A stretch of 64,000 nucleotides of DNA from an uncultured Clostridia bacterium (GCA_947594935.1 CANQEM010000002.1:3100-67099); one strand, 5' to 3'; shown: positions 10,117-50,511, counted from the first letter of the stretch. Numbers and translations are program-made. Notes: a model not told the origin generated them from the letters alone.

Positions 10117-13100
10117 TTATATAACAAATTTTCTAATTAGTGCAACTCCGGCAGCTAGTGTAGAAAGTACACTTACACCTAGAACATAATATACTTGTGC
10201 ATGACCTGTTTTTACTGATAACATAACTGGTGCATCGTCAATATCATCTTCTTTTGGTTTTTTGTTGTTTGGTGTAGAGTCTATATCTGGAATTCCTTTG
10301 TCGTTATAATCTTCTGAGATTTCTGCTGTGTTTGTTTTTAATCCCATGTTGTCTTCACGTTTTATCCATGTTAATAGTACTTCTACGTCTGCGCTTTCTC
10401 CTGGTTGTAATAGTCTATCTGCTAATAGATTTGTTGTTATAACATTATCACCTTTTTCTGTCCATCCTGGGTTTTCTGCTGCAATGAATTGTAAACCTTC
10501 TGGTATATAATCTGTGATTTCTTTTGCATATCCAGCTATATGTCCTTGGTTTGTAATTCTAATTGAATATCTGAATTTTACAGTTACGTTTGCTAGATTT
10601 TTTCTATTTAAATCAACTTTTACGATTGGCTCTGGATCCATTTCTGGTGTGTGACCTGTTTGTGTAACTGTTTGTTTTCCGTTTTCAATTACTATTGCTT
10701 GTGTTACCCATTTTCTTAGAGCTAAGTCAAATATTTGTGGTATGTTTTCTACTTGATTTTGAATTGATGAAATTTCTTCTTGATAACTATTTTTATTGAT
10801 TTTTACTTCTATTGGTTCTGTTATTCCGTCATATCCATCTGGTATCTTTGTTTCTACAATCCAATAGCTTGTGCTTACGTTGTCTGCATCATAGTCATAA
10901 GTTCCATCATCTTTTCTGTTTTCTTCACTTGTATAAGCATCTCCACCATATTGTAAACCTTTAATTCTAATGATACCATCTTTATCTGATGTTTCAGTTA
11001 AAATTGCGTTTTCATTTTTCTCTGCGTCTTCTTTGCTTGCATATACTGTGAATTCTGCTCCCTCTAGTCCAACTCGTTTGTTGTCTGAGTTATAGTATTT
11101 GAAAATTGTTACACCACCAGTATGAACTTCTGGTACTTCTGTTCTTTTCTTTCTCTTGTTTGTAGATTTATTTTTGAATTCTAATTCTGCTTGGTTTGGA
11201 ACTTGTTCTCCTAGTTCAGCTAGGATATTTCCATCTGCATCTTTTGCAAAAGTTGTGTTGAATTCTACACGTATTTTCTTACCAGCATTATTTAATATTG
11301 TATCAGATAATGTTGTTTTTTCTCCTTCAACATCTGTAAATGTTAGTTTTAATGTTCCAGATGAAGTTTTTTGACTTACTCCATTTGCATTTTCTTCAAA
11401 AGTTATAATGTAATCTGTTTCTTCTTGTAATTCAGCTACTTCTGTTTTGTTATCTACTATTGATACTTTGACATCTTTAATTCCAGTAAATTCTAATCTG
11501 TAATCAATATCATCAATAATATTGTAGATTTCATAATCTGCGATGTCTTCTGGGATGTCTGATTCTATAACCCATGTATGTGTTTCATCTGCATCATATC
11601 CTGAGTCTTGGTTTTCAACATCTTTTACACCTTTATGAATATCTGGTTCTTTTTTGATTACAACTTTTTCAAAATCGTCATCGTCTTCTTGCCATGTATT
11701 GTAATTTGGTTTGTCTTTTTCTTCTGGTTCTTGTAAATCATCTGGTGTAGAATCTCTATCATCTATTTCTTCTCCATGTTCGTCTTTGTCTTCTGTTATT
11801 TCTGCAATGTTTGTTTGAATTACATCTGGTTCAACTGTGTCATTTAACCTACACATAATTGGCACTTCTGCATAGTCTAATTTTAAACCATTGTTTAATG
11901 TTGGTGCATTTATTAAGTGATTTTTTAAGTAATCTGTGCTTATTTTTCTTGTTACTGGGTCATATTGCCAATTATATTGTCTGTTATATTCACTATCTAC
12001 ATAGTCTAAACCATCTGGTAAGTAATCAGTAATTTCTGACGCATATCCTGCTAAATCGCCTTCATTATATACTCTAAGCATATATACGATATAGTCATTG
12101 CTGTTAACAAGTAGTGGTTCTTTTGTGTGTTCATAAGTTGCTGTTGTAACATATTGACCATCTTGTTCTGTATTTAATTTTGATGTATCTACTTTTGGTT
12201 CTCTTGCATATTTGCTGTTATCTACTGTATCTCTAAGTTCTTCACTTTCTTCTATTTTGTCATCTTCACTTACTGCAATAATGAATTTTCTTAAAGCTAA
12301 GTCAAATTCTTGTACTTTAATTAAGTCATAATCTTCATCGTCTTGATATTTTGATGGGTCTTTTTTACCTTCCCAATTTTCTGGTTGAGAATCTCTATCA
12401 TCAATGTCTTCGTTGTTTTCATCTTTGTCCATTGTGATGGCTGCTTCGTTTCTGATAGTTGTTTTTCTACTATTTTCTGATACAACTCTCATATAGATAT
12501 ATAAATCTCTATAATCTGGGTTTTTCTCAGTTTCTGTATCTAAATAGTCTTTTGTTTTATCAAAAGGTTTTAATAGGTTTGCTGTTGATTGTGGTTGACC
12601 TTTTTCTGCGCCTTCACCTTTTGCTAAATCATCAGTTGTTATTTCTGTAATTTTTTGAGTTGTTTCATCAGTTTTTGATATATCCCAGTGTAATTGGTTC
12701 CATAAAATTGCTTCTTGTTCAACTTCTGACAATGTAGTGTCTTTTTCTATATCGTCATTTGTTACACCATATTTGTAAACAAATTCTAGTCCATCTGGTA
12801 CATCTTCTGTAACTTGTGCTGCATATCCAGCTAAGTCACCTTCATTATATACACGTAAACGATATTTTACAATGTCACCTTTTTTAACTAGTACTGGTAC
12901 TTTGTTCATGTTGAATTTTGCATCTGTTGCACCTGCTTTTAATTCATCTACATTAACTCCTAAAATTCTTTCCGGAACTTCTTCGCCATTTACTGCAAAA
13001 ATTGTTTTCTTTAATCTTAGGTCAAATTGTTTTGGTTGTAATTTTAATTTTTCAAAGTCATCATCATCTTCAAAACCTTTGAAATATGTATCTGGGTTTC

Positions 13101-15423
13101 CTAATTCTGTTGCATTGTTGTTATCTCCTGGGTTGCTTGAATGTCCATTATATGTTTCTTGTGTTCCAATTGTTGGTTCTGTTGATGGTAATGAGTCTGT
13201 ATCTTCACCTGGGTTTAATACTGTAATTCCATCTGCTGTGTTCTTTTCTTGTGAAATCCATGCTACGTTTGTTAATACAAGTTCTCTTTCTTCATCTTCT
13301 TTTTGTGTTACAGTACATGTAAATTCAATTGTTTCTGATGCTGGTACGCCACTGCCTGAATAAGCTGCAAGTGGGTCTGATTCACTGTTTCTTGTAAATT
13401 TAACTTTATTTTCTCCTGATAATGTTGTGCTATCTGCTGTCCATTTTGCTTTTGATGCTGCACTTAATTCTTTAAATTGTAAGCCTGTTGGTAATTTATC
13501 TATAATTTCTTTTGCAACACCTGCTCTGTCGCCTTCATTATATATTGTTATGTTGTATGTAACAACATCATTTTGTTCTACTAATACTGGGTCTTTTCTA
13601 TGTTTGTAATCAGCTGTGCCGTTTGTTGCTATTTTTGTTCCATCAATTGTTGGCTCTCTTTTAGCTGCTGTTCCTGTTAATACTGTTGTTCTTCCTGCTG
13701 ATTCTACTTTTGTAATATATTTTCTTAATGCTAAGTCAAAGTTGTATGGTAATAGTTGTAGTTTTTCAAAGTCATCATCATCTTCTTGTCCTGGGAAGTA
13801 ATGAGTTGAAGTTGATAAATCTGTTGATTTATCTGTTCCTCTATAATTTGGTAAATCGCTTGTATCTGGTACTGTTGATGGTAATGAATCTCTATCATCA
13901 CCTGTTCTTGTTATCTCGTTACCTGTTTCTGTGTTCTTTTCTTTTGATATCCAAGCTACGTTTGTTAATATTGTTGTATCTGTTTTTGATGGAGATTTTG
14001 TTACTTTACATTTGAAAGTAATTGTTTCTGAGCTTATGTTGTTTCCACCTGCATAAGCTGCAAGAGGAGTGCTTTCACTTTGTCTTGTGAATTTGATTTG
14101 TCCACCTTCTGATGATGCAGTATATGTTACTCCACCTGTTGAACATGTTACTCCACCTTCTGCATAATATTCAAGTCCGTCTGGTAATTTATCTATAATT
14201 TCAGTTGCGATACCATTTGCATCACCTTCATTATATATTGTAATTTTATATGTGACGATACTTCCTTTTTTAACTGTTACTGGTTCTTTTCTGTGTTTGT
14301 AATCTGCTGTACCTTTTTGTGCTATTTTACTTCCATCTATTTGTGGAGTTCTTGTGTTTGGAACTCCTTGATTGTCTATATCTGTAATATATTTTCTTAA
14401 TGCTAAGTCAAAAACATGTGATGGTGTTACGATAATAACTGGTTGTGCTGACATATCTCCTGAGCATGTTAATAATGTAATTTGACTTTTTGGTGTTCTT
14501 CTTCCATCTCTATAATCTTGCCATCTTGCTTGTGCTGTTTCTACTAAATAATTGTATAAAGCATTAACTTGTTTTGATCTGATTTCTCCGTCGTCTTGTG
14601 TTCCTTGACTGCCATCATGTTTTTTCAAATAATCTGCAATTGCTGAATAGCTTACACCACTATTATTTGAAAAATCAAACCAACTTCCGTCTACATCTTC
14701 GCTATAGTTATTGTAAACATTTTGATAAGCTGGGCTATCATATTGAGTGAAATACCAGAAAGCTGCTTGTTGAATTGCATCTATCATTGAATCTGATAAA
14801 TAATTTTGGTCACTATCACTTAAACTATATATATTAGCGTCATTTAATAGCTTTTGTTTTTCTGTATCTGTTGAGCCACCTGTTGCTACTGGTTTTCCTT
14901 CTGCTCCCAAACTTCCTTTTACATATATTAAATCACATAATGCCATAATTGAATAATAAACTTGATCATGGCTTTGTGCAACTATGCTTTGTAAGTTAGT
15001 GTCTCCTGACCTTGCTATCATATCCGCTCTTTCTTTTACAAAGTCATATTTAACATCATATTCTTTAATTCTATCTTCAACAGTTGTTGATTGTTCTGTT
15101 CCATTAGAAAAGCCTACATCAGCTTTAACACAATAAAAGTTGGCATTATTGTTTAGTCCATCTTTTGCTATGCTGTTATAACTAACAATTTGCCATATTA
15201 TGCTTCCTTGCTTGTTTGCTAATGAGTCTCCTATTCCTGTTTTTGGATCGTTGATTGCAAATGCCAGATTTGCTTCTGGTTGTGAATTTGATCTTACTTC
15301 TTTTAGTCCTAAATATAGCTTAGGATTAAGTTCTGCTGCCTTAGCCATACTTGGCACTGCAAAAATCGCAATTAAAAATGTGATTACTGCTAAAATAATA
15401 CCTTTCAATTTTTTGTTCTCCAT
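10117..15423 (-). CDS. Giant surface adhesin: signal peptide, thioester-domain-like N-terminus, five DUF11-type repeat modules, Cna-B/SpaA-type domain, C-terminal sorting signal
   Basis: Signal peptide ending AKA-AE. FYCVKAD and AIQQAAFWYFT motifs. Repeated FDLALRK..Y.I.VYNEGD..EI.D.LP.GL modules. GGVTIFKYY..YWIVETKIPDGYD Cna-B-like domain. C-terminus MLSVKTG + TM + RK. Start at the ATG at 15421-15423 after GGAGAGG. Confidence 0.8.
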   Translation of the reverse strand: MENKKLKGIILAVITFLIAIFAVPSMAKAAELNPKLYLGLKEVRSNSQPEANLAFAINDPKTGIGDSLANKQGSIIWQIVSYNSIAKDGLNNNANFYCVKADVGFSNGTEQSTTVEDRIKEYDVKYDFVKERADMIARSGDTNLQSIVAQSHDQVYYSIMALCDLIYVKGSLGAEGKPVATGGSTDTEKQKLLNDANIYSLSDSDQNYLSDSMIDAIQQAAFWYFTQYDSPAYQNVYNNYSEDVDGSWFDFSNNSGVSYSAIADYLKKHDGSQGTQDDGEIRSKQVNALYNYLVETAQARWQDYRDGRRTPKSQITLLTCSGDMSAQPVIIVTPSHVFDLALRKYITDIDNQGVPNTRTPQIDGSKIAQKGTADYKHRKEPVTVKKGSIVTYKITIYNEGDANGIATEIIDKLPDGLEYYAEGGVTCSTGGVTYTASSEGGQIKFTRQSESTPLAAYAGGNNISSETITFKCKVTKSPSKTDTTILTNVAWISKEKNTETGNEITRTGDDRDSLPSTVPDTSDLPNYRGTDKSTDLSTSTHYFPGQEDDDDFEKLQLLPYNFDLALRKYITKVESAGRTTVLTGTAAKREPTIDGTKIATNGTADYKHRKDPVLVEQNDVVTYNITIYNEGDRAGVAKEIIDKLPTGLQFKELSAASKAKWTADSTTLSGENKVKFTRNSESDPLAAYSGSGVPASETIEFTCTVTQKEDEERELVLTNVAWISQEKNTADGITVLNPGEDTDSLPSTEPTIGTQETYNGHSSNPGDNNNATELGNPDTYFKGFEDDDDFEKLKLQPKQFDLRLKKTIFAVNGEEVPERILGVNVDELKAGATDAKFNMNKVPVLVKKGDIVKYRLRVYNEGDLAGYAAQVTEDVPDGLEFVYKYGVTNDDIEKDTTLSEVEQEAILWNQLHWDISKTDETTQKITEITTDDLAKGEGAEKGQPQSTANLLKPFDKTKDYLDTETEKNPDYRDLYIYMRVVSENSRKTTIRNEAAITMDKDENNEDIDDRDSQPENWEGKKDPSKYQDDEDYDLIKVQEFDLALRKFIIAVSEDDKIEESEELRDTVDNSKYAREPKVDTSKLNTEQDGQYVTTATYEHTKEPLLVNSNDYIVYMLRVYNEGDLAGYASEITDYLPDGLDYVDSEYNRQYNWQYDPVTRKISTDYLKNHLINAPTLNNGLKLDYAEVPIMCRLNDTVEPDVIQTNIAEITEDKDEHGEEIDDRDSTPDDLQEPEEKDKPNYNTWQEDDDDFEKVVIKKEPDIHKGVKDVENQDSGYDADETHTWVIESDIPEDIADYEIYNIIDDIDYRLEFTGIKDVKVSIVDNKTEVAELQEETDYIITFEENANGVSQKTSSGTLKLTFTDVEGEKTTLSDTILNNAGKKIRVEFNTTFAKDADGNILAELGEQVPNQAELEFKNKSTNKRKKRTEVPEVHTGGVTIFKYYNSDNKRVGLEGAEFTVYASKEDAEKNENAILTETSDKDGIIRIKGLQYGGDAYTSEENRKDDGTYDYDADNVSTSYWIVETKIPDGYDGITEPIEVKINKNSYQEEISSIQNQVENIPQIFDLALRKWVTQAIVIENGKQTVTQTGHTPEMDPEPIVKVDLNRKNLANVTVKFRYSIRITNQGHIAGYAKEITDYIPEGLQFIAAENPGWTEKGDNVITTNLLADRLLQPGESADVEVLLTWIKREDNMGLKTNTAEISEDYNDKGIPDIDSTPNNKKPKEDDIDDAPVMLSVKTGHAQVYYVLGVSVLSTLAAGVALIRKFVI
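13048..14412 (-). repeat. Intragenic tandem duplication (two most similar adhesin modules, each about 220 aa)
   Basis: Modules aa 344-560 and 568-798 share long identical runs (GTADYKHRK.PV, ITIYNEGD, EIIDKLP.GL, LTNVAWIS.EKNT, DSLPST, EDDDDFEKL). Confidence 0.7.
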
Positions 15424-15455
15424 CTTTAACCTCTCCTTCAAATTACTTTATTTAT

Positions 15456-23096: not shown

Positions 23097-25739
23097 TTAT
23101 TTTGATTTTTCGTCTCCATTTTGTTCACTACTCATGTCAATATCTTCGCCATCTAATTGGTCATGTTCAGCAGCTTCTCTTCCTATTATTTCTGTTTTGT
23201 GTATTTCTTCTCTTGAAGCTCTTACTCTTTTAAAGAATTCTGATGCTTCTCCTGCTTTTTGTTTTCCAATTGTTTTTACACTTTCTAGTTTTGATTTTAG
23301 TCCTTGCAAACGGCTTTCTTCAATGGCGTATTTTTGGCTTCTAAATACTTTTGAGAAGAATTGTTTTATTTTTTCTATTCTTCCAACTGCTCCTAGAACT
23401 TCTATACCTTCAATTTGCCTAGATGCTTTAACTATGCTTCTCATTCTGTTTTTCTGGCTCATATTCAAAGAATCTGCAACTAACTCATCTTTATTTATTG
23501 TTCTAGAAATTATACCACCAATATACTCTGGTTTTGTTTGATTGTCATATACTATTTCTAGGAATCGTGTATCTATTTCTCCTGTTTCCATTTGGTCAAA
23601 ATATTCTCCTAACATTTCTTCTGAGTATCTTACTATGCTTGATATGTCCATATCGCAGTATTCTCCTCTTTTTAAAATTGCTTCTTGCATTGCGTGCATT
23701 AGAGGATAGTCCATTGCTTCTGGCAATTCTTCCATTACATTGTATTTGTTTTTAACAATTTCTTTTAGTTCTTTAATATTTGCTTTACTTAAATTTGATA
23801 ATTCGCTTATTCCAACTGCCGTATTGTCTGAGAATCTAAAATGATATAGTCCTGCATTTGCAAAACAAGTTATTCCTGTTAAAGTAATTTCTTCTGGTGC
23901 TTCTTGATGGTGTGCGGAATAATCTGGTGGTGGAGTGTTTGGTTCTTCATATTCAGGTGCTGTTCTAGTTGGTTTTGGCTCATATTGTACTGGTGCTTGT
24001 TTTGGTTCTGGTGTTATTGTTGGTCTTATTCTTTGTATTGCCGGTTTCTTTTGGATTGGCTGTTGTTCCGGCTCTTGCTTTTGTTCCGGTGTTATTGTTG
24101 TTCTTATTCTTTGTATTGCTGGTTTCTTTTGGATTGGCTGTTGTTCCGGCTCTTGCTTTTGTTCCGGTGTTATTGTTGGTCTTATTCTTTGTATTGCTGG
24201 TTTCTTTTGAATTGGTTGTTGTGCTGACTCTTGCTTTTGTTCCGGTTGTTGTTTTTGTTCTGGTGCTGTTTTGGGGTCTTTAATGATAATTTGTGGCTGA
24301 CGTTTACGTGCGTCTTTTGGTTGTGTTTTAACAGGTTTCTTAGGTTGTTCATCTGGTTGTAATATAGGTTGCTGATATTCTTCTTCTGGTTCATCCATTA
24401 CCATTATTCCTAATTTTTTTACTGTTTCCATTGTTTCGGCATCTCTACCAAATTCTTTCTGTATATGCACAATATCTTTTATAATGTCAATTGCGTCCCA
24501 TTTTTTGTAGTTACCAAATTCTTCTTTTATTGCTAGTTCTTTTTTATCTTTTGGAAGTTTTGGGCTATCTATAATTGATGCTAAAAGGTTGTGCTGATTA
24601 TCTATTCTTTGATAAATCTTGCTTTCTAGTTCAGAACCAACTATTCCTTTTATTGCAAACATTTCTGCGACTTCTTCTTTTAGAGATGTTGTTTGCATTT
24701 CTAGTGCTTCTATCGTAACTAGTTCTGCTGGCTTCTTTGGTTTTAGTGTTTTAGATTTTTCTTTTGGTTTTTCTTCTGGCTTAGGTTCTTCCTTTGGCTC
24801 TTCTGGTTTTTCTTCTGCCTTAGGTTCTTCTTTTGACCCTTCTGGCTTTTCTTCCGCCTTAGGCTCTTCTTTTGGCTCATCTGGTTTTTCTTCTTCCTTA
24901 GGTTCTTCCTTAGGTTCTTCCTTAGGTTCTTCCTTTGGTTCTTCTGGTTCTTTTCTCAAATATATCTCGTTTAATGAATATTTACTAATTAACTTATTTG
25001 CTTCTTTTTTTATTTTGTTTTTATTTTTTGTAGCTTCTTTCAATGCTTCTTGTGCGTCAATTTTTTCTTCCCATATTGCTGCTCTAACTTTTGCAAATTG
25101 TTTTAACTCCTTCATCCTTGAATCTTGTGCTTTCAACATTTGGTCTCTAATTGATAAAAGAAATGGGTCTTCATCTTTGCCCAAAGATTTTAAAGATAGT
25201 TGTAATTTATTTGTACTTTTCTGATATTTGTTTAATGCCCTATTGCATTGGCTGAATTTTTCACGTGCTTCTTTCGCCTTTTGCTTAGCTTCTTCTTCTT
25301 TTTGCTCTGCTTCTGCAATGTTTGCTTGAATTCCTCTTAATAAATCTTTTTTTATTTCTAACTTTTCTTGTTCAAGTTTACCTTTTTTTACTTGGTTTTC
25401 TTTATCTTTTTTTTCAACATCGTCTGGTAATTTTTCTTTTGCCTTTTCATGCCTTGTTTTTGCTGATTTAATTCTTGAATTCAAACTTTTAATTTTTTTA
25501 TCAAGTTCTCTGTTGTTGCCTTCAATTTCCTCTAATTCCTCTGGTGTGCTTTTTTCTGTTGCAATTTCTCTATTGCTTTCATACTTAATTATTTCATCTT
25601 CTATTTTTTTTACTTGTTCTCTATATTTTTGATTTAATTTTGCTAACTTCTCATTATACATTTCTTCTGGTGTTAATATTTTATCAATCTCTTTTTGTTT
25701 TTTGAGTAAATTTTTTTCTATTTTACTTAAATCTACCAT
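23097..25739 (-). CDS. Large coiled-coil / low-complexity tandem-repeat protein with a globular C-terminal domain (unknown function)
   Basis: Lys/Glu-rich coiled coil, then an (EEPK)n tract, then three 26-aa repeats, then an unrecognised domain of about 290 aa. Start at the ATG at 25737-25739 after AAGAGGGG. The track ORF (889 aa) starts at 25766 without an RBS. Confidence 0.6.
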   Translation of the reverse strand: MVDLSKIEKNLLKKQKEIDKILTPEEMYNEKLAKLNQKYREQVKKIEDEIIKYESNREIATEKSTPEELEEIEGNNRELDKKIKSLNSRIKSAKTRHEKAKEKLPDDVEKKDKENQVKKGKLEQEKLEIKKDLLRGIQANIAEAEQKEEEAKQKAKEAREKFSQCNRALNKYQKSTNKLQLSLKSLGKDEDPFLLSIRDQMLKAQDSRMKELKQFAKVRAAIWEEKIDAQEALKEATKNKNKIKKEANKLISKYSLNEIYLRKEPEEPKEEPKEEPKEEPKEEEKPDEPKEEPKAEEKPEGSKEEPKAEEKPEEPKEEPKPEEKPKEKSKTLKPKKPAELVTIEALEMQTTSLKEEVAEMFAIKGIVGSELESKIYQRIDNQHNLLASIIDSPKLPKDKKELAIKEEFGNYKKWDAIDIIKDIVHIQKEFGRDAETMETVKKLGIMVMDEPEEEYQQPILQPDEQPKKPVKTQPKDARKRQPQIIIKDPKTAPEQKQQPEQKQESAQQPIQKKPAIQRIRPTITPEQKQEPEQQPIQKKPAIQRIRTTITPEQKQEPEQQPIQKKPAIQRIRPTITPEPKQAPVQYEPKPTRTAPEYEEPNTPPPDYSAHHQEAPEEITLTGITCFANAGLYHFRFSDNTAVGISELSNLSKANIKELKEIVKNKYNVMEELPEAMDYPLMHAMQEAILKRGEYCDMDISSIVRYSEEMLGEYFDQMETGEIDTRFLEIVYDNQTKPEYIGGIISRTINKDELVADSLNMSQKNRMRSIVKASRQIEGIEVLGAVGRIEKIKQFFSKVFRSQKYAIEESRLQGLKSKLESVKTIGKQKAGEASEFFKRVRASREEIHKTEIIGREAAEHDQLDGEDIDMSSEQNGDEKSK
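24010..24243 (-). repeat. Three tandem 78-bp in-frame repeats
   Basis: Units 24010-24087 and 24088-24165 differ at 2 of 78 nt. The third unit (24166-24243) diverges at its end. They encode QQPIQKKPAIQRIRPTITPEQKQEPE. Confidence 0.9.
24759..24953 (-). repeat. Short-period (12-nt) Pro-Lys-Glu-Glu coding repeat tract
   Basis: EPEEPKEEPKEEPKEEPKEEEKPDEPKEEPKAEEKPE.. with matching ggttcttcct-type DNA periodicity. Confidence 0.8.
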
Positions 25740-44569: not shown

Positions 44570-47500
44570 TTATTCAATGACATCATCGTCAGAATCGAAA
44601 ATATCTTCATCATCTTCGTCATCTAAATCACCAAAAAGCTCGTCATCATCTTCTAACATCATGTCTTCATCTTCCAAGTTCTCGTCTATGAAGTTGTCTT
44701 CTAGTTCGCCTTCATTATCTCCTGTGAAGTCTTCTTGTGATAACATTTTCTTTTCTTGCTCTGGGTCATATTCAATTCCGTCTTCAATATTTTCTTTTAA
44801 TTCTAGTTCTTGATTATCTTCTGAATATAGTTTTACATCTAAGCCCAAAGATTGTAATTCTTTTACTAGCACTTTAAAGCTTTCTGGTATACCTGGTTCT
44901 GGTATATTTTCGCCTTTAACAATTGCTTCGTAAGTTTTTACTCTTCCGACTATATCATCAGATTTTACTGTTAACATTTCTTGTAATGTGTATGCTGCTC
45001 CATAGGCCTCTAATGCCCAAACTTCCATTTCTCCGAAACGTTGTCCACCGAATTGTGCTTTACCACCAAGTGGTTGTTGTGTTACTAGTGAGTATGGTCC
45101 TGTTGAACGAGCATGTATTTTATCGTCTACTAAGTGATGTAGTTTTAACATGTACATTACGCCGACTGTAACTGGTTTTGCAAATGGATCTCCGGTACGT
45201 CCATCATATAGGATAGATTTTCCGTCTGCACTCATTCCGGCTTCTTTCAAGATTTCTTCAACATCTTGTTGTGTTGCACCATCAAATACTGGTGTTGAAA
45301 CATGCCATCCAAGTGCTTTTGCTGCTCCACCTAAGTGTACTTCTAAGATTTGACCTAAGTTCATACGAGATGGAACACCTAGTGGGTTTAATAAAATATC
45401 GATTGGTGTACCATCTGGTAAAAATGGCATATCTTCTTCTGGTAATACTCTTGAAATAACACCTTTATTTCCGTGGCGTCCAGCCATTTTATCACCAACT
45501 GAGATTTTTCTCTTTGTTGCAATATAACATCTGATTATTTGATTTACGCCTGGTCCTAGTTCGTCTGAATTTTCTCTTGTAAATATCCTTACATCTACTA
45601 TTGTTCCAGCTTCTCCATGAGGAACACGTAAAGAAGTGTCTCTAACTTCTCTTGCTTTTTCTCCAAAGATTGCTCTTAAAAGTCTTTCTTCTGCTGTTAA
45701 TTCAGTTTCTCCTTTTGGAGTTACTTTACCTACCAAAATGTCTCCTGGTCTAACTTCTGCACCTATTCTGATAATTCCGTTTTCGTCAAGGTCTTTTAAA
45801 ACATCATCACCAACATTTGGTATGTCTCTTGTGATTTCCTCTGGACCTAATTTTGTATCACGGCATTCGCAATCATATTCTTCAATGTGAATTGATGTGA
45901 ATACATCTTCTTTGACTAGTCTTTCATTTAACAAAATAGCATCTTCGTAGTTGTAACCTTCCCATGTAGAGAATGCAACTAATACGTTTTTACCAAGTGA
46001 CATTTCCCCATCTTTTGTTGCTGGACCGTCTGCAATTGCGTCACCTTTCTTAACTATTTCGCCTTTTTTTACTATTGGTTTTTGGTTGATACATGTTCCA
46101 CCATTTGTTCTCTTGAATTTACGCAATTTATGTACAACTGTTTTTCCGTTTTGATATTTAACAGTGATTGCATCACCTGTTACTTTTTCTATAACTCCGT
46201 CATCTTCTGCTAACACTAATATTCCAGAATCTTTTGCTGCTCTGTATTCTATACCTGTTGCAACAATTGGTCTTTCTGTTATCATTAGAGGTACAGCTTG
46301 ACGTTGCATGTTTGCACCCATCAATGATCTTTTTGCATCATCATGCTCTAAGAATGGTATCATGGCTGCTGCAATTGATACTAGTTGTTTTGGTGAAACA
46401 TCAATATATTGTACTTGGTCTTTATCAACTTCGATAATGTCGTTTTTGTAACGTACTCTAATTCTATCATTGATAAATTCGCCTTTTTTGTTCATTGGTT
46501 CTGATGCTTGTGCGATTATGTAGTTATCTTCTACATCTGCACTCATGTATTCTACAATGTCTGTTGCTCTATGTGTTTTTGGGTCAATTTTTCTGTATGG
46601 TGTTTCAATAAAGCCATATTCATTGATATTTGCAAATGAAGAAAGTGCTGAGATTAAGCCTATGTTTGGTCCTTCTGGTGATTCAATTGGGCATAATCTA
46701 CCATAGTGTGTATAGTGAACATCACGTACTTCGAAACCAGCTCTTTCTCTTGTTAAACCACCAGGTCCTAATGCTGAAATTCTTCTTTTATGTGTTAGTT
46801 CTGATAATGGGTTTGTTTGATCCATGAATTGTGATAGTTGTGAACTTCCAAAGAATTCTTTTATTGCTGATGTAATTGGTTTTGTGTTTATTAAAGTTTG
46901 TGGTGTTACAACATCTAGGTCTTGAATTGTCATTCTTTCACGTACAACTCTTTCTAATCTTGCTAAACCAATTCTAAATTGATTTTGTAAAAGTTCTCCT
47001 ACACAACGAATTCTACGGTTTGATAAGTGGTCAATGTCATCTGGTTTTCCAAGACCATGTGATAAGTTTAATAAATAGTTTACTGATGCTATCATGTCAT
47101 CAATTGTGATATGTTTTGGAACTAATTCGTCATATCTTTCTTTCATCATTTTTACTAAGTCTTTTTTGTCTGTATGGTCAATGATGTTTTTCAATATTTC
47201 ATAATTTACATCTTCTTTGAAGTGTAAGCTACTTAAATCAACATTTGGTAGAACTTTGTGTGGGTTTACTGTTCCGTTTCCGATAATTCTGATTGTTTTT
47301 TCGCCTAATAAAATATCAACTATGTTAATACCTGAATTTTGTATGTTGTCTGCTACTTCTTCTGTGATTACTTCACCTGCTTGTGCAAAAACTTCACCTG
47401 TTTCACTGTTTACAACATCTTTTGCTGCTATTTTGCCTTTAATTCTTCCTGCTAGACCTAATTTTTGGTTGAATTTGTATCTTCCTACTTTTGCTAGGTC

Positions 47501-48298
47501 ATATCTTCTGTCATCATAAAATAGACCACTGAATAGGCTTTTTGCAGCTTCAACTGTTGGAAGTTCTCCTGGTCTTAGTTTTTTATAGATTTCTATTAAA
47601 GCGTCTTCTTGATTTTTGATTGGGTCTTTTTCGATTGTTGCTTTAAGCATTTCTTCTTCCCCAAACAATTCACGAATTTGGTCATCACTAATTACACCTA
47701 TTGCGCGTAATAGGGTTGTAACTGGTACTTTTCTGGTACGGTCAACACGAACCCAGAAAATGTCGTTTCCATCTGTTTCATATTCTAGCCATGCTCCTCT
47801 GAGTGGCATAACTGTTGATGTATAAGTCTTTTTTCCTGTTTTTGTGTCAAAGATTTCATCATAGTAGCATCCTGGTGAACGTACTAATTGGCTAACAACA
47901 ACTCTTTCTGCTCCGTTTATAATAAATGTTCCACTGTCAGTCATCAATGGGAAATCTCCAAGATATATTTCTTGTTCTTTGATTTCTCCTGTTTCACGGT
48001 TGATTAACCTAACTTTTACATGTAGTCTGCTTGAATATGTTGCGTCTCTTTCTTTTGCTTCCTCTAATGAATATTTTGTTTTGTCTTCCATGTAATAGTC
48101 AAAAAATTCAAGAACAAGATTTCCAGAATAATCTTCTATTGGTGATATATCTTTTAATACTTCGCCTAGTCCTTCTTCTACAAACCAGTTGTATGAATCT
48201 TTTTGTACTTTGATTAGGTTTGGCATTTCGATAAAATCTCCAACTTTTGCGAAATCTTTTCTTGAAGCTTTTTCGTATTGGATGTCTTTTAGTTTCAA
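44570..48298 (-). CDS. rpoB: DNA-directed RNA polymerase subunit beta (with an acidic C-terminal tail of about 75 aa)
   Basis: Conserved RpoB blocks throughout. Probable TTG start at 48296-48298, 8 nt after AAGGAG. The track GTG at 48307 abuts the RBS. Confidence 0.97.
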
Positions 48299-48501
48299 AA
48301 AAATCACTCCTTATTTATTATTAAAGCAGAATGAATTTATTTGATTTTAGGAAAAGTCCTTCTTAGCTTATAGCTCTTATAAAGTTTCGGAAAATGTCTG
48401 CTTCCCATCTTCTTCTACTTTATGGGGTTCTATACCTAATTCCTCTTCCCCTAAAAAGAAAATCGATTTATATTAAATTTTGAATAAATGTTACAAGGAA
48501 T

Positions 48502-48531
48502 ATTATATCAAATTTTGCTTACGGAAGTCAA
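48502..48531 (-). promoter_or_regulatory. rpoB promoter (leader of about 190 nt)
   Basis: Minus strand: TTGACT (48526-48531), 18-nt spacer, TATAAT (48502-48507). Confidence 0.6.
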
Positions 48532-48553
48532 GCTTTTTGAAGAAATTTTTTTA

Positions 48554-48569
48554 TTTTTTTTGATATTGT
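48554..48569. repeat. Left copy of the perfect 16-bp direct repeat TTTTTTTTGATATTGT
   Basis: Exact match to 49550-49565. Flanking bases differ on both sides (a/t versus c/g). Confidence 0.9.
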
Positions 48570-48583
48570 TTCAATCTCCAAAA

Positions 48584-48613
48584 TTGGACATTTTACATAA
48601 AATATGGTATAAT
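48584..48613 (+). promoter_or_regulatory. Extended -10 promoter of the cassette gene
   Basis: TTGGAC (48584-48589), 18-nt spacer, TGgTATAAT (48605-48613). Confidence 0.6.
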
Positions 48614-48689
48614 ATATGTAGTGTAACCCTTATATTCTTGCCTTTTTTGGCAGGTTGACATAGAAAACATTATAAAAGGAGGAAAGAAT

Positions 48690-49490
48690 ATGAAAATCAA
48701 AGAATTAAGGCGGTGGTTTTCTACTACCATCGCAACAGTTGCGAAAAAGAGGAAGGATTCCACATTTCTGGCTGTCAGCCTTTTAGTGCTATATTTGTTA
48801 GCGCTTATATTCCTGGTTGGTGTATACAAGAATAGCTTCGGCTGGGGCGTAATTCTAGGCGTTTGCATTTGTCTAATAATCTACGCCGTCCAGAAGAGGG
48901 ACACTCTATTCAAGAAAAAGCCAAAATTCACATTTCCGACCAACGTAAGGATGAAGTACGTTGGTATTTACGAGCAAGTTGGGGTGGAAGCTGTGAAGGT
49001 CCTTAATGAGATGCCAAAAGAGGACCGACAAGCACTGCAACTAGTCGACAACAAGTCTTATTCATATCTGTTGATTTTTGACAAATACTTGAATGAGGTT
49101 TGGCAGACTTGGTTCGAAGATGTAGCACGAGCTGCTTGTCTTGTAGTTAGCCTGATGGAGAGACCGGTCATAGATACGAAATTATCATATGACTTTAACA
49201 CTCCAACGGCATCTGAGTACGAGCAGTATCGAGAGATTATCTTCGACTTTGCGTTAAGATGTGGATGCCTCAACTTGGGGATAGACTTCGAGTCTGTCAA
49301 GAGTGAGGAGCGTCTGTACAACATGCTTTTCCACTCTGTTTCAACACTCGCTCGTCAGAAGCCAAACGAGCAGAGTCTATCGGTTCTCATTGATATGTTC
49401 CACTATGTAAAAGAGGAAACTCTTTACTGGGATACGGATGATGAGGACTATGACTATGACGAAGACGCTGTTGAGGGTAGCAACGAATAA
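48690..49490 (+). CDS. Unknown 266-aa membrane-tethered protein: two N-terminal TM helices, helical cytoplasmic domain of about 185 aa, Asp/Glu/Tyr-rich tail
   Basis: AAAGGAGG RBS 7 nt before the ATG. TM helices at aa 26-46 and 52-67, flanked by Lys/Arg clusters. C-terminus YWDTDDEDYDYDEDAVEGSNE. No family recognised. About 43-47% GC versus about 30% in neighbours (hand counts). Confidence 0.85.
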   Translation: MKIKELRRWFSTTIATVAKKRKDSTFLAVSLLVLYLLALIFLVGVYKNSFGWGVILGVCICLIIYAVQKRDTLFKKKPKFTFPTNVRMKYVGIYEQVGVEAVKVLNEMPKEDRQALQLVDNKSYSYLLIFDKYLNEVWQTWFEDVARAACLVVSLMERPVIDTKLSYDFNTPTASEYEQYREIIFDFALRCGCLNLGIDFESVKSEERLYNMLFHSVSTLARQKPNEQSLSVLIDMFHYVKEETLYWDTDDEDYDYDEDAVEGSNE

Positions 49491-49500
49491 AATTCTTTAC

Positions 49501-49541
49501 CCCCACGTGCATTGCACGTGGGGTGTTTCTCTTTTTCTTTT
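49501..49541 (+). terminator. Strong GC-rich rho-independent terminator of the cassette gene
   Basis: CCCCACGTGC-att-GCACGTGGGG perfect 10-bp stem followed by TGTTTCTCTTTTTCTTTT. Confidence 0.85.
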
Positions 49542-49544
49542 CCA

Positions 49545-49573
49545 TTGACTTTTTTTTGATATTGTGATATATA
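49545..49573 (+). promoter_or_regulatory. Promoter of the MNT gene; its -35 box straddles the cassette/repeat junction
   Basis: TTGACT (49545-49550), 17-nt spacer, TGaTATATA extended -10 (49565-49573). Confidence 0.55.
49550..49565. repeat. Right copy of the perfect 16-bp direct repeat TTTTTTTTGATATTGT
   Basis: Exact match to 48554-48569, 996 bp away. Confidence 0.9.
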
Positions 49574-49606
49574 CTTATAAGAGTTTTAGAAAGGAGATGT
49601 TTTTAT

Positions 49607-49954
49607 ATGCAGGTATTACCAGATAATATTGAGATGATTGTAAATGAATTTGTAAATAATGCGGTTGAATTACTTGGAAATCATTTAAAGCAAATAATTT
49701 TATATGGTTCTTATGCAAGAGGCGATTTTAATTCTAATTCTGACATTGATATTATGATATTAGTTGATCTGGAAGATAAAGAACTTGAAAAAAAGTCTGA
49801 TGAGATTGTTGAGATGGCTTATGATATAGAGGCAAATAATGATTTTTTAATACATTTATCCCCTTTAGTAAAAAATATCGATTCATTTAATTATTGGTTG
49901 GATACAATACCTTTTTATATGAACGTTAAGAGGGAAGGAGTGCCTCTACATTGA
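49607..49954 (+). CDS. Minimal nucleotidyltransferase (MNT/pol-beta superfamily), no adjacent HEPN gene
   Basis: LYGSYARGDFNSNSDIDIMILVD matches the GS-x10-DxD motif. 115 aa. RBS AAAGGAG. Confidence 0.8.
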   Translation: MQVLPDNIEMIVNEFVNNAVELLGNHLKQIILYGSYARGDFNSNSDIDIMILVDLEDKELEKKSDEIVEMAYDIEANNDFLIHLSPLVKNIDSFNYWLDTIPFYMNVKREGVPLH

Positions 49955-50004
49955 GGTATATCTGCATATAAAAAATTATAAAGACTAAAAAATGAAAGGG
50001 TGCT

Positions 50005-50511
50005 TTGGGTATGTCAGCTTTACCGCTTTTTGTTAAGTATTTATTAACTGGGTTTATTGGAATGATTCCTATTATTGAGCTTAGGGGGGCAATTCCTGTG
50101 GGAGTATTTACTTTCCACTTAAATTATTTAGAGTCGTTTCTTTGTAGTTTTATTGGAAATATCATTCCTGTTTATTTTATAGTTAAATTCATACGTCCAT
50201 TATTTGATTTTTTTGGAAGATGGAAACCTTTTAAAGTTATTATTGACTGGGCTTCAAACAAGGCTACAAAAAATATTGAAAATAACCCTAGATTGCAAAA
50301 TTTTGCAGCTCTTGGACTATTTCTTTTTGTTGCAATCCCTTTACCTGGAACAGGTGCTTGGGTGGGTTCTTTAATTGCAAATTTCTTAGACTTGCCACCT
50401 AAAAAAGCAATCCCACCTATTATCATAGGTGTTCTAACTGCTGGAATTATAATTCTTATATTAACTGCAATTGCAAATGGTGGAATACAGTATTTGTTGC
50501 AAAGAGGATAA
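50005..50511 (+). CDS. Small membrane protein of the 'small multidrug export' (COG2426) family
   Basis: IPIIELRGAIPVG motif, 4-5 TM helices. The ATG at 50011 is an alternative start. Confidence 0.6.
   Translation: MGMSALPLFVKYLLTGFIGMIPIIELRGAIPVGVFTFHLNYLESFLCSFIGNIIPVYFIVKFIRPLFDFFGRWKPFKVIIDWASNKATKNIENNPRLQNFAALGLFLFVAIPLPGTGAWVGSLIANFLDLPPKKAIPPIIIGVLTAGIIILILTAIANGGIQYLLQRG

Follow-up and report, generated by a model that had tools for sequence, protein, structure and literature searches.

Variable and defence hotspots between core genes are known from bacterial chromosomes, such as the core defence hotspots of Pseudomonas and the P2/P4 hotspots of E. coli. Hypervariable allelic loci between conserved flanks are known as well, from the agr specificity groups of staphylococci and the comCD pherotypes of streptococci. 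Among the Firmicutes, single-gene, membrane-anchored proteins act in phage exclusion or abortive infection, among them the lactococcal Sie-type proteins and some Abi proteins. The locus described here, an open reading frame (ORF) between rpoB and Sm_multidrug_ex (Sm) in a 64,000-nt stretch of DNA from an uncultured Clostridia bacterium (the window), was compared with each of these.

Like the core-flanked defence hotspots, the rpoB-Sm slot had conserved flanks, cargo that differed between close relatives, defence or toxin-antitoxin (TA) genes nearby and imported composition. On the other hand, it always held one gene of one family behind a conserved resident promoter, so that it resembled allelic replacement, and it had no integrase or mobile-element backbone. 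With the agr and comCD loci it shared an identity drop confined to one gene, and discrete, very divergent alleles in close relatives. However, the slot gene had no peptide-signal, kinase or other recognisable signalling part, and its variable part was a (predicted) cytoplasmic helical domain.

The Sie and Abi proteins resembled the slot protein in being small, constitutively expressed, dispensable, strain-variable products of a single gene with an N-terminal membrane anchor. The slot family differed from them in its lack of PADLOC or PHROG similarity and in being chromosomal, not carried by a prophage, and it is known here from sequence alone.

Variable cargo between core genes and replacement by foreign alleles are known phenomena. 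The protein family and its fold were undescribed, but uncultured Firmicutes commonly carry membrane proteins that are orphans. What was unusual was the combination: one family, a resident promoter, alleles of about 30% identity amid flanks of about 90%, a third-position GC content (GC3) of 0.50 against 0.20, and a place beside rpoB. The features of the locus are collected in Table 1.

Table 1. Features of the rpoB-Sm slot, in window coordinates
Feature	Position	Strand	Remarks
Left copy of the perfect 16-nt direct repeat, TTTTTTTTGATATTGT	48554..48569
Sigma-70-type promoter of the ORF, TGGACA, 17-nt spacer, TGn-TATAAT	48585..48613	+	11/12 consensus matches, TG present
5'UTR with Shine-Dalgarno sequence AAAGGAGG	48614..48689	+	may form a hairpin
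ORF, 266 aa, stop codon included in the coordinates	48690..49490	+	GC 0.431, GC3 0.502
Two-TM hairpin, aa 26-68, with a basic cluster on each side	48765..48893	+	from translation and hydrophobicity
Conserved, predicted all-alpha cytoplasmic domain, aa 84-247, the family-defining core	48939..49430	+	from alignment A2 and AlphaFold
Acidic Tyr-rich tail, aa 248-266, allele-specific, predicted disordered	49431..49487	+	no counterpart in P0003, P0004 or P0005; pLDDT < 50
Intrinsic terminator of the ORF	49501..49523	+	10-bp stem with 8 GC pairs, T-rich tail
Native Sm promoter, TTGACT and TATATA	49545-49550 and 49568-49573		homologous to that of L002
Right copy of the 16-nt direct repeat	49550..49565		in the spacer of the native Sm promoter
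407-bp insertion relative to L002, carrying an MNT nucleotidyltransferase gene	49580..49986	+	MNT ORF 49607-49954

The slot protein and its family

The ORF started with ATG, and its product carried a basic N-terminus (KKRKD, aa 19-23), two hydrophobic stretches spanning roughly aa 26-46 and 50-68, with Kyte-Doolittle peaks of 3.05 and 2.45, a KKKPK cluster (aa 75-79), a single R-x6-H string (R208 and H215 in ERLYNMLFH, aa 207-215) and the acidic tail DTDDEDYDYDEDAVEGSNE. The basic N-terminus, two TM segments, KKKPK, R-x6-H string and acidic tail had all been pointed out in an earlier reading made from the sequence alone (the sequence-only reading), and all were present in the translation. The basic residues flanking the hairpin and its short YKNSFGW loop suggested, by the positive-inside rule, an N-in/C-in topology for the two TM segments, as that reading had proposed.

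Diverged homologues of the product existed, and two strains differed in the ORF by seven synonymous and four non-synonymous changes. As judged from these comparisons, the ORF is a real gene and not a chance ORF, and the seven versus four changes indicated that the window allele encodes a constrained, functional protein.

When 5.8 billion protein clusters were searched with a word index, the sole match was P0001, 98% identical, on a 1.66-kb contig (L001) that represented the same locus in a second strain. A full HMMER search of 1.84 billion representatives added P0003 (300 aa, 31% identity to the window protein), P0004 (253 aa, 32%), P0005 (185 aa, 26%) and P0002, in which the window allele is truncated. 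With a single-sequence query, the E-values were from 2e-14 to 2e-9, those of diverged homologues. Contigs L007-L012 ended in a further, partial allele, situated immediately 5' of Sm, and the window protein itself was present in NCBI, on a contig of 79.8 kb. The family thus comprised five allele classes (the window and four diverged relatives) among about 15 billion proteins, and the conservation and selection inferences drawn here for the family are those from five allele classes only.

The family was marked by the motifs RMKY, YLxxFDKYLN, CLxVSLMExP and T-x-SE-[FY]-E (alignment A2). The window protein had both defining properties, the motifs of the all-alpha C-terminal domain and the position between rpoB and Sm. 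The numbers of TM segments across the family were 2, 4, 2 and 0. They were always even, which suggested that the C-terminal domain is cytoplasmic, and the TM count of P0005 suggested that the membrane tether is optional.

The sequence-only reading had called the protein unassignable. Searches of Pfam, NCBIfam, PADLOC and PHROG bore this out, giving no family match to the window protein, just sub-threshold hits to its TM segments. When all five members were searched against Pfam and NCBIfam at E-values up to 5, only sub-threshold TM-segment families were again obtained. Neither the window protein nor the other members matched the defence models of PADLOC-DB v2, and the family had no significant match among the PHROGs. 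A sequence-profile search of the PDB returned nothing at E-values up to 10.

The phage and plasmid collections, INPHARED among them, gave no match by blastn or tblastn, and no relative was found among the viral contigs of IMG/VR. Scans of IMG/VR and of the JGI metagenomes with the family patterns and a conserved 27-mer of the rpoB leader also returned nothing. The protein is a membrane-anchored member of a very rare, unnamed family, which in the present sampling does not extend beyond one narrow clade of uncultured Clostridia of the gut.

The structure of the cytoplasmic domain was predicted with AlphaFold. The single-sequence model was unusable (pLDDT 44). Modelling on a family alignment of just five sequences gave a mean pLDDT of 70 overall, with block means of about 76-92 over most of aa 84-247 and of about 59-64 at aa 161-180. 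The predicted domain, of roughly 165 aa, was all-alpha and consisted of about seven helices plus a very small sheet of two strands. Foldseek found no match to it among 350,542 PDB chains (best E 0.59, TM below 0.3) or in BFVD (best E 0.21). These results agreed with the proposal of a membrane-tethered protein whose helical domain belongs to no known family, and the structure prediction and fold search suggested with it gave a confident all-alpha domain with no known fold matched.

The invariant columns of alignment A2 were K89, V97, E111, L116, L118, Y126, L127, L151, L155, P159, T173, S175, E176 and E178. In the model, T173, S175 and E176 lay at the N-terminus of a predicted helix (174-196), and P159 lay just past helix 143-157. 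The invariant positions thus look structural, being largely predicted helix caps or hydrophobic core. No conserved catalytic constellation of R, H or D was present in the family alignment. A binding or sensor module without enzymatic activity, held on the inner side of the membrane, is therefore the most likely interpretation of the domain.

A fixed slot and a foreign allele

The gene order in the window was rpoC-rpoB (minus strand), the ORF (plus), Sm (plus), an AI-2E transporter gene (minus) and the exonuclease III (ExoIII) gene (minus). The same order was found at the loci of P0003 and P0004, which came from the uncultured Clostridia MAGs Lapin-010__bin20 and Lapin-028__bin77. Besides the window, the family loci on long contigs were L002 and L004. 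In pairwise comparisons of the three genomes, identity was 95-96% for RpoB/RpoC, 90-95% for Sm, 83-89% for the AI-2E transporter and 86-87% for ExoIII. On the other hand, the slot proteins were 30-33% identical in all three comparisons.

More distant relatives (Sm 82-86% identical; L020 and L029) had rpoB, a spacer of 570-660 nt and then Sm, and neither a family gene nor a remnant of one was found in that spacer. Most of the Sm relatives sampled for slot alleles had another synteny or an empty slot, and only the lineage of L007-L012 yielded another (partial) allele. All homologues with visible context were in this one chromosomal slot. The gene resides in a slot of fixed position, with the divergent rpoB promoter on one side and Sm on the other.

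In the L007-L012 lineage, the closest by Sm, the next gene downstream of Sm belonged to the OLD family. It encodes an ATPase-TOPRIM nuclease (L007:1202-2611, also in L008-L012; PADLOC Old/AriA/GajA, E down to 2e-27) and takes the place that the AI-2E and ExoIII genes have in the gene order elsewhere. Its presence in that place suggested that the neighbourhood acts as a variable, defence-type hotspot.

The ORF promoter (GGACATTTTACATAA...TGGTATAAT) and part of the 5'UTR were homologous in the window, L002 and L004 (DNA alignment A3), and the CAGGTTGA..ATAG block of the 5'UTR was kept in both relatives. Downstream of the ORF, L002 had a different hairpin where the window has the ORF terminator. 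The next segment (49544-49579, TTGACT...TATATA) was the homologue of the L002 Sm promoter, identical at 32 of 36 positions. As judged from these alignments, the ORF promoter, the 5'UTR and the Sm promoter are the resident framework of the slot, in which only the coding sequence and the terminator hairpin differ. The conservation of promoter and 5'UTR argued against a free cassette that brings a foreign promoter along.

Within the 5'UTR (48630-48693), CCUUUUUU can pair with the Shine-Dalgarno sequence and the start codon (MFE -17.1 kcal/mol, z -2.2). An analogous CCUGUU/AACAGG pairing was present in L002 and L004, with one compensatory change. When folded singly, the 5'UTRs of L002 and L004 did no better than shuffles, and a consensus fold of the three species showed no significant covariation. 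A hairpin that sequesters the Shine-Dalgarno sequence and the start codon may be formed, according to these folding models. An Rfam scan of 48200-50100 gave just one chance terminator-like match.

Some other features of the window were recorded. The rpoB leader (48308-48553, minus strand; roughly 240 nt) was conserved in the window, L002 and L004, with long identical stretches. Its promoter was TTGACT-18-TGn-TATAAT (48531..48502, minus strand). It had no Rfam family match, and it may be an uncharacterised regulatory leader. The C-terminus of RpoB (44570-44700, minus strand) had a long, strongly acidic extension, which seems unusual for bacterial beta subunits. Large minus-strand ORFs of 1774 aa (10117-15441) and 889 aa contained extensive internal DNA repeats, with a tandem array of a period of about 78 nt at 24010-24233, and probably encode repeat-domain surface proteins.

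The base composition set the window allele apart. The ORF region had the highest GC content in the window (0.43-0.46; mean 0.32, sd 0.037), and its GC3 compared with 0.201 +/- 0.028 in 40 other ORFs (maximum 0.259), a z of about 10.8. The homologous alleles had GC3 values of 0.22-0.28. Each was the highest in its neighbourhood (0.12-0.22) and near the host values. An allele with a GC3 of 0.50 cannot be native, and its alien GC3 suggested a recent replacement by a foreign allele. We infer that a homologue from an unsampled, GC-richer donor would have replaced the resident allele recently, by recombination inside the conserved framework of the slot. For the other alleles, extreme divergence in place may apply instead of replacement. 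The earlier description of a small foreign unit therefore held for the coding sequence, which was compositionally foreign. It was not supported in the sense of a mobile cassette, as the promoter, 5'UTR and Sm promoter were homologous in the relatives and the gene was found in one slot only.

The window and L001 differed by 15 SNPs, 8 of which lay in or beside the TM hairpin (48775-48928), as did a 74-nt deletion variant. This deletion was found in a low-coverage ENA contig (L040:478-720; equivalent to window 48855-48928), between AATTC repeats. It removed TM2 and shifted the frame of the ORF, leaving an 80-aa product (P0002). The variant may be a natural null allele or else an assembly artefact, and, if real, it indicated that the gene is dispensable. 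ENA contigs broke inside the ORF; strain heterogeneity was rejected as the cause, as the low-coverage fragments matched the window with 0-2 mismatches.

Cassette, toxin or accessory protein

The two 16-nt copies bracketed a unit of 996 bp that comprised promoter, ORF, terminator and also the -35 element of the Sm promoter. If they were att-like, the gene could be a self-contained mini-cassette that is mobilised in trans, either through microhomology-mediated recombination or by the action of a site-specific recombinase. In keeping with this, TTTTTTTTGATATTGT had no other exact occurrence in the window, a pair of this kind was expected at about 0.03 per given 2-kb stretch in Markov simulations, and 14 of the 15 inter-strain SNPs fell between the copies (Fisher p = 0.006). 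However, the same simulations produced about one T-rich 16-mer pair per 64 kb, and both ends of the unit were framework that was homologous in L002 and L004. These two had no such repeat, and L002 was identical to each copy at 12 of 16 positions in the same place. The alien composition began at the coding sequence and not at the repeats, no recombinase gene was present within several kb, and the unit was found at this locus and nowhere else searched. The repeat could be a scar left by recombination, it could be att-like and mark the junction of a module that is exchanged, or it could be chance in T-rich promoter DNA together with lower constraint on the gene. A mini-cassette is, in our estimate, quite unlikely. 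The SNP clustering and the repeat nevertheless hint at a different exchange mechanism, one that lies outside the allele-replacement account.

The proximity of the MNT gene suggested another explanation, that of a type VII toxin-antitoxin pair in which the protein would be a HEPN-like RNase toxin, tethered to the membrane, and the adjacent MNT its antitoxin. The slot gene shared with the HepT/HEPN toxins an adjoining MNT gene (117 nt downstream of the ORF, with a weak MntA similarity of 34 bits against a cutoff of 60) and an R-x6-H string near the end of a helical domain, the cue offered by the sequence-only reading. On the other hand, R208 aligned with Q, A or E and H215 with R, K or H in the homologues, and no R or H was invariant anywhere in alignment A2. 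HEPN-type profiles of Pfam and NCBIfam matched none of the five members even at E-values up to 5, and no HEPN entry appeared among the 50 PDB matches listed by Foldseek. The predicted domain, of about seven helices with a small two-stranded sheet, was not the four-helix HEPN core, and the window protein differed from HepT/HEPN toxins also in its membrane anchor. The proposed partnership failed in the relatives too, since L002 and L004 carried the family gene without MNT. In the window, MNT was in a separate insertion past the ORF terminator. By comparison with L002, this insertion parts the Sm promoter from the ribosome-binding site of Sm, and MNT is driven by the Sm promoter. By this arrangement, MNT is an independent acquisition that would be transcribed with Sm and not with the ORF. 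A HEPN toxin with an MNT partner was rejected on these sequence and model grounds, and we regard it as highly improbable.

The full length of the MNT product was covered by a match to PDC-S09, a candidate of PADLOC (E 1.9e-23), and nothing on the function of PDC-S09 was found in the literature. TTATAA occurred on both sides of the insertion region (49575-49580 and 49975-49980), the MNT ORF lay between the arms of a 17-nt inverted repeat (49600-49616 and 49958-49974), and the MNT gene had no HEPN partner gene.

The evolutionary description can be given with high confidence: the gene is a resident of a syntenic slot, its allele in the window is foreign, and its product is neither a HEPN protein nor the partner of MNT. 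What the protein does is a separate matter. A dispensable gene, very different alleles, a strong constitutive promoter and a neighbourhood of TA or defence type fitted best with a part in genetic conflict, be it immunity to a delivered toxin or the exclusion of phages or abortive infection. The neighbourhood comprised the PDC-S09-type MNT in the window, the OLD/GajA/AriA-like gene of L007 and a PemK toxin gene in L004, and its association with the family is one across three loci. PemK and OLD genes were thus found at the relatives' loci, and the family itself occurred only in the chromosomal slot, with no phage, plasmid or viral occurrence. We put forward the conflict role tentatively, on grounds of gene association and evolutionary pattern, as a possibility that falls short of an even chance. 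In such a role, the cytoplasmic domain would bind or sense at the inner face of the membrane, and the TM hairpin would act as an anchor or a membrane effector.

The protein could instead be a lineage-specific, fast-evolving accessory membrane protein in a non-conflict role, such as a scaffold, a regulator or a partner in envelope or transport functions. The diversity of its alleles would then reflect relaxed constraint and occasional horizontal replacement, and not an arms race. Consistent with this were the fixed chromosomal site beside housekeeping genes, never on mobile elements, the conserved promoter and leader, which suggest host-integrated regulation, the lack of a match to defence models, and the structural look of the conserved residues. 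However, 30% identity amid flanks of 83-96% is extreme, and a compositionally alien allele implies repeated exchange. The gene was missing in near relatives and truncated in a population variant. It was always beside Sm, yet Sm was 90-95% conserved, which makes a co-evolving partnership unlikely. A non-conflict accessory role is doubtful on this balance, though it keeps an appreciable share of the probability. Taken as a whole, our best explanation is that of a slot-resident, recently imported allele of a cytoplasmic binding or sensor protein with a role in conflict, and we judge its chances of being right and wrong to be about equal.

A more specific proposal is that the gene encodes a new single-gene, membrane-anchored anti-phage or immunity protein with a novel all-alpha sensor fold, whose specificity alleles would be swapped horizontally into the promoter-equipped slot, with the repeats as possible module junctions. 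This we consider unlikely, though less so than the mini-cassette.

Meaning of the slot gene

As it stands, the slot protein is one of many orphan membrane proteins, somewhat unusual in its composition and pattern of divergence. If the conflict reading is wrong, the analysis still corrects an attractive HEPN/MNT annotation and shows that the supposed cassette is a syntenic locus. If it is true, the family would be a compact one of defence or immunity, so far overlooked and with a new fold, and the slot would be a clean natural case in which alleles are swapped behind a resident promoter at a site in the core genome. It would then be useful for understanding how Clostridia of the gut vary their specificity for phages or toxins in the absence of mobile-element machinery.
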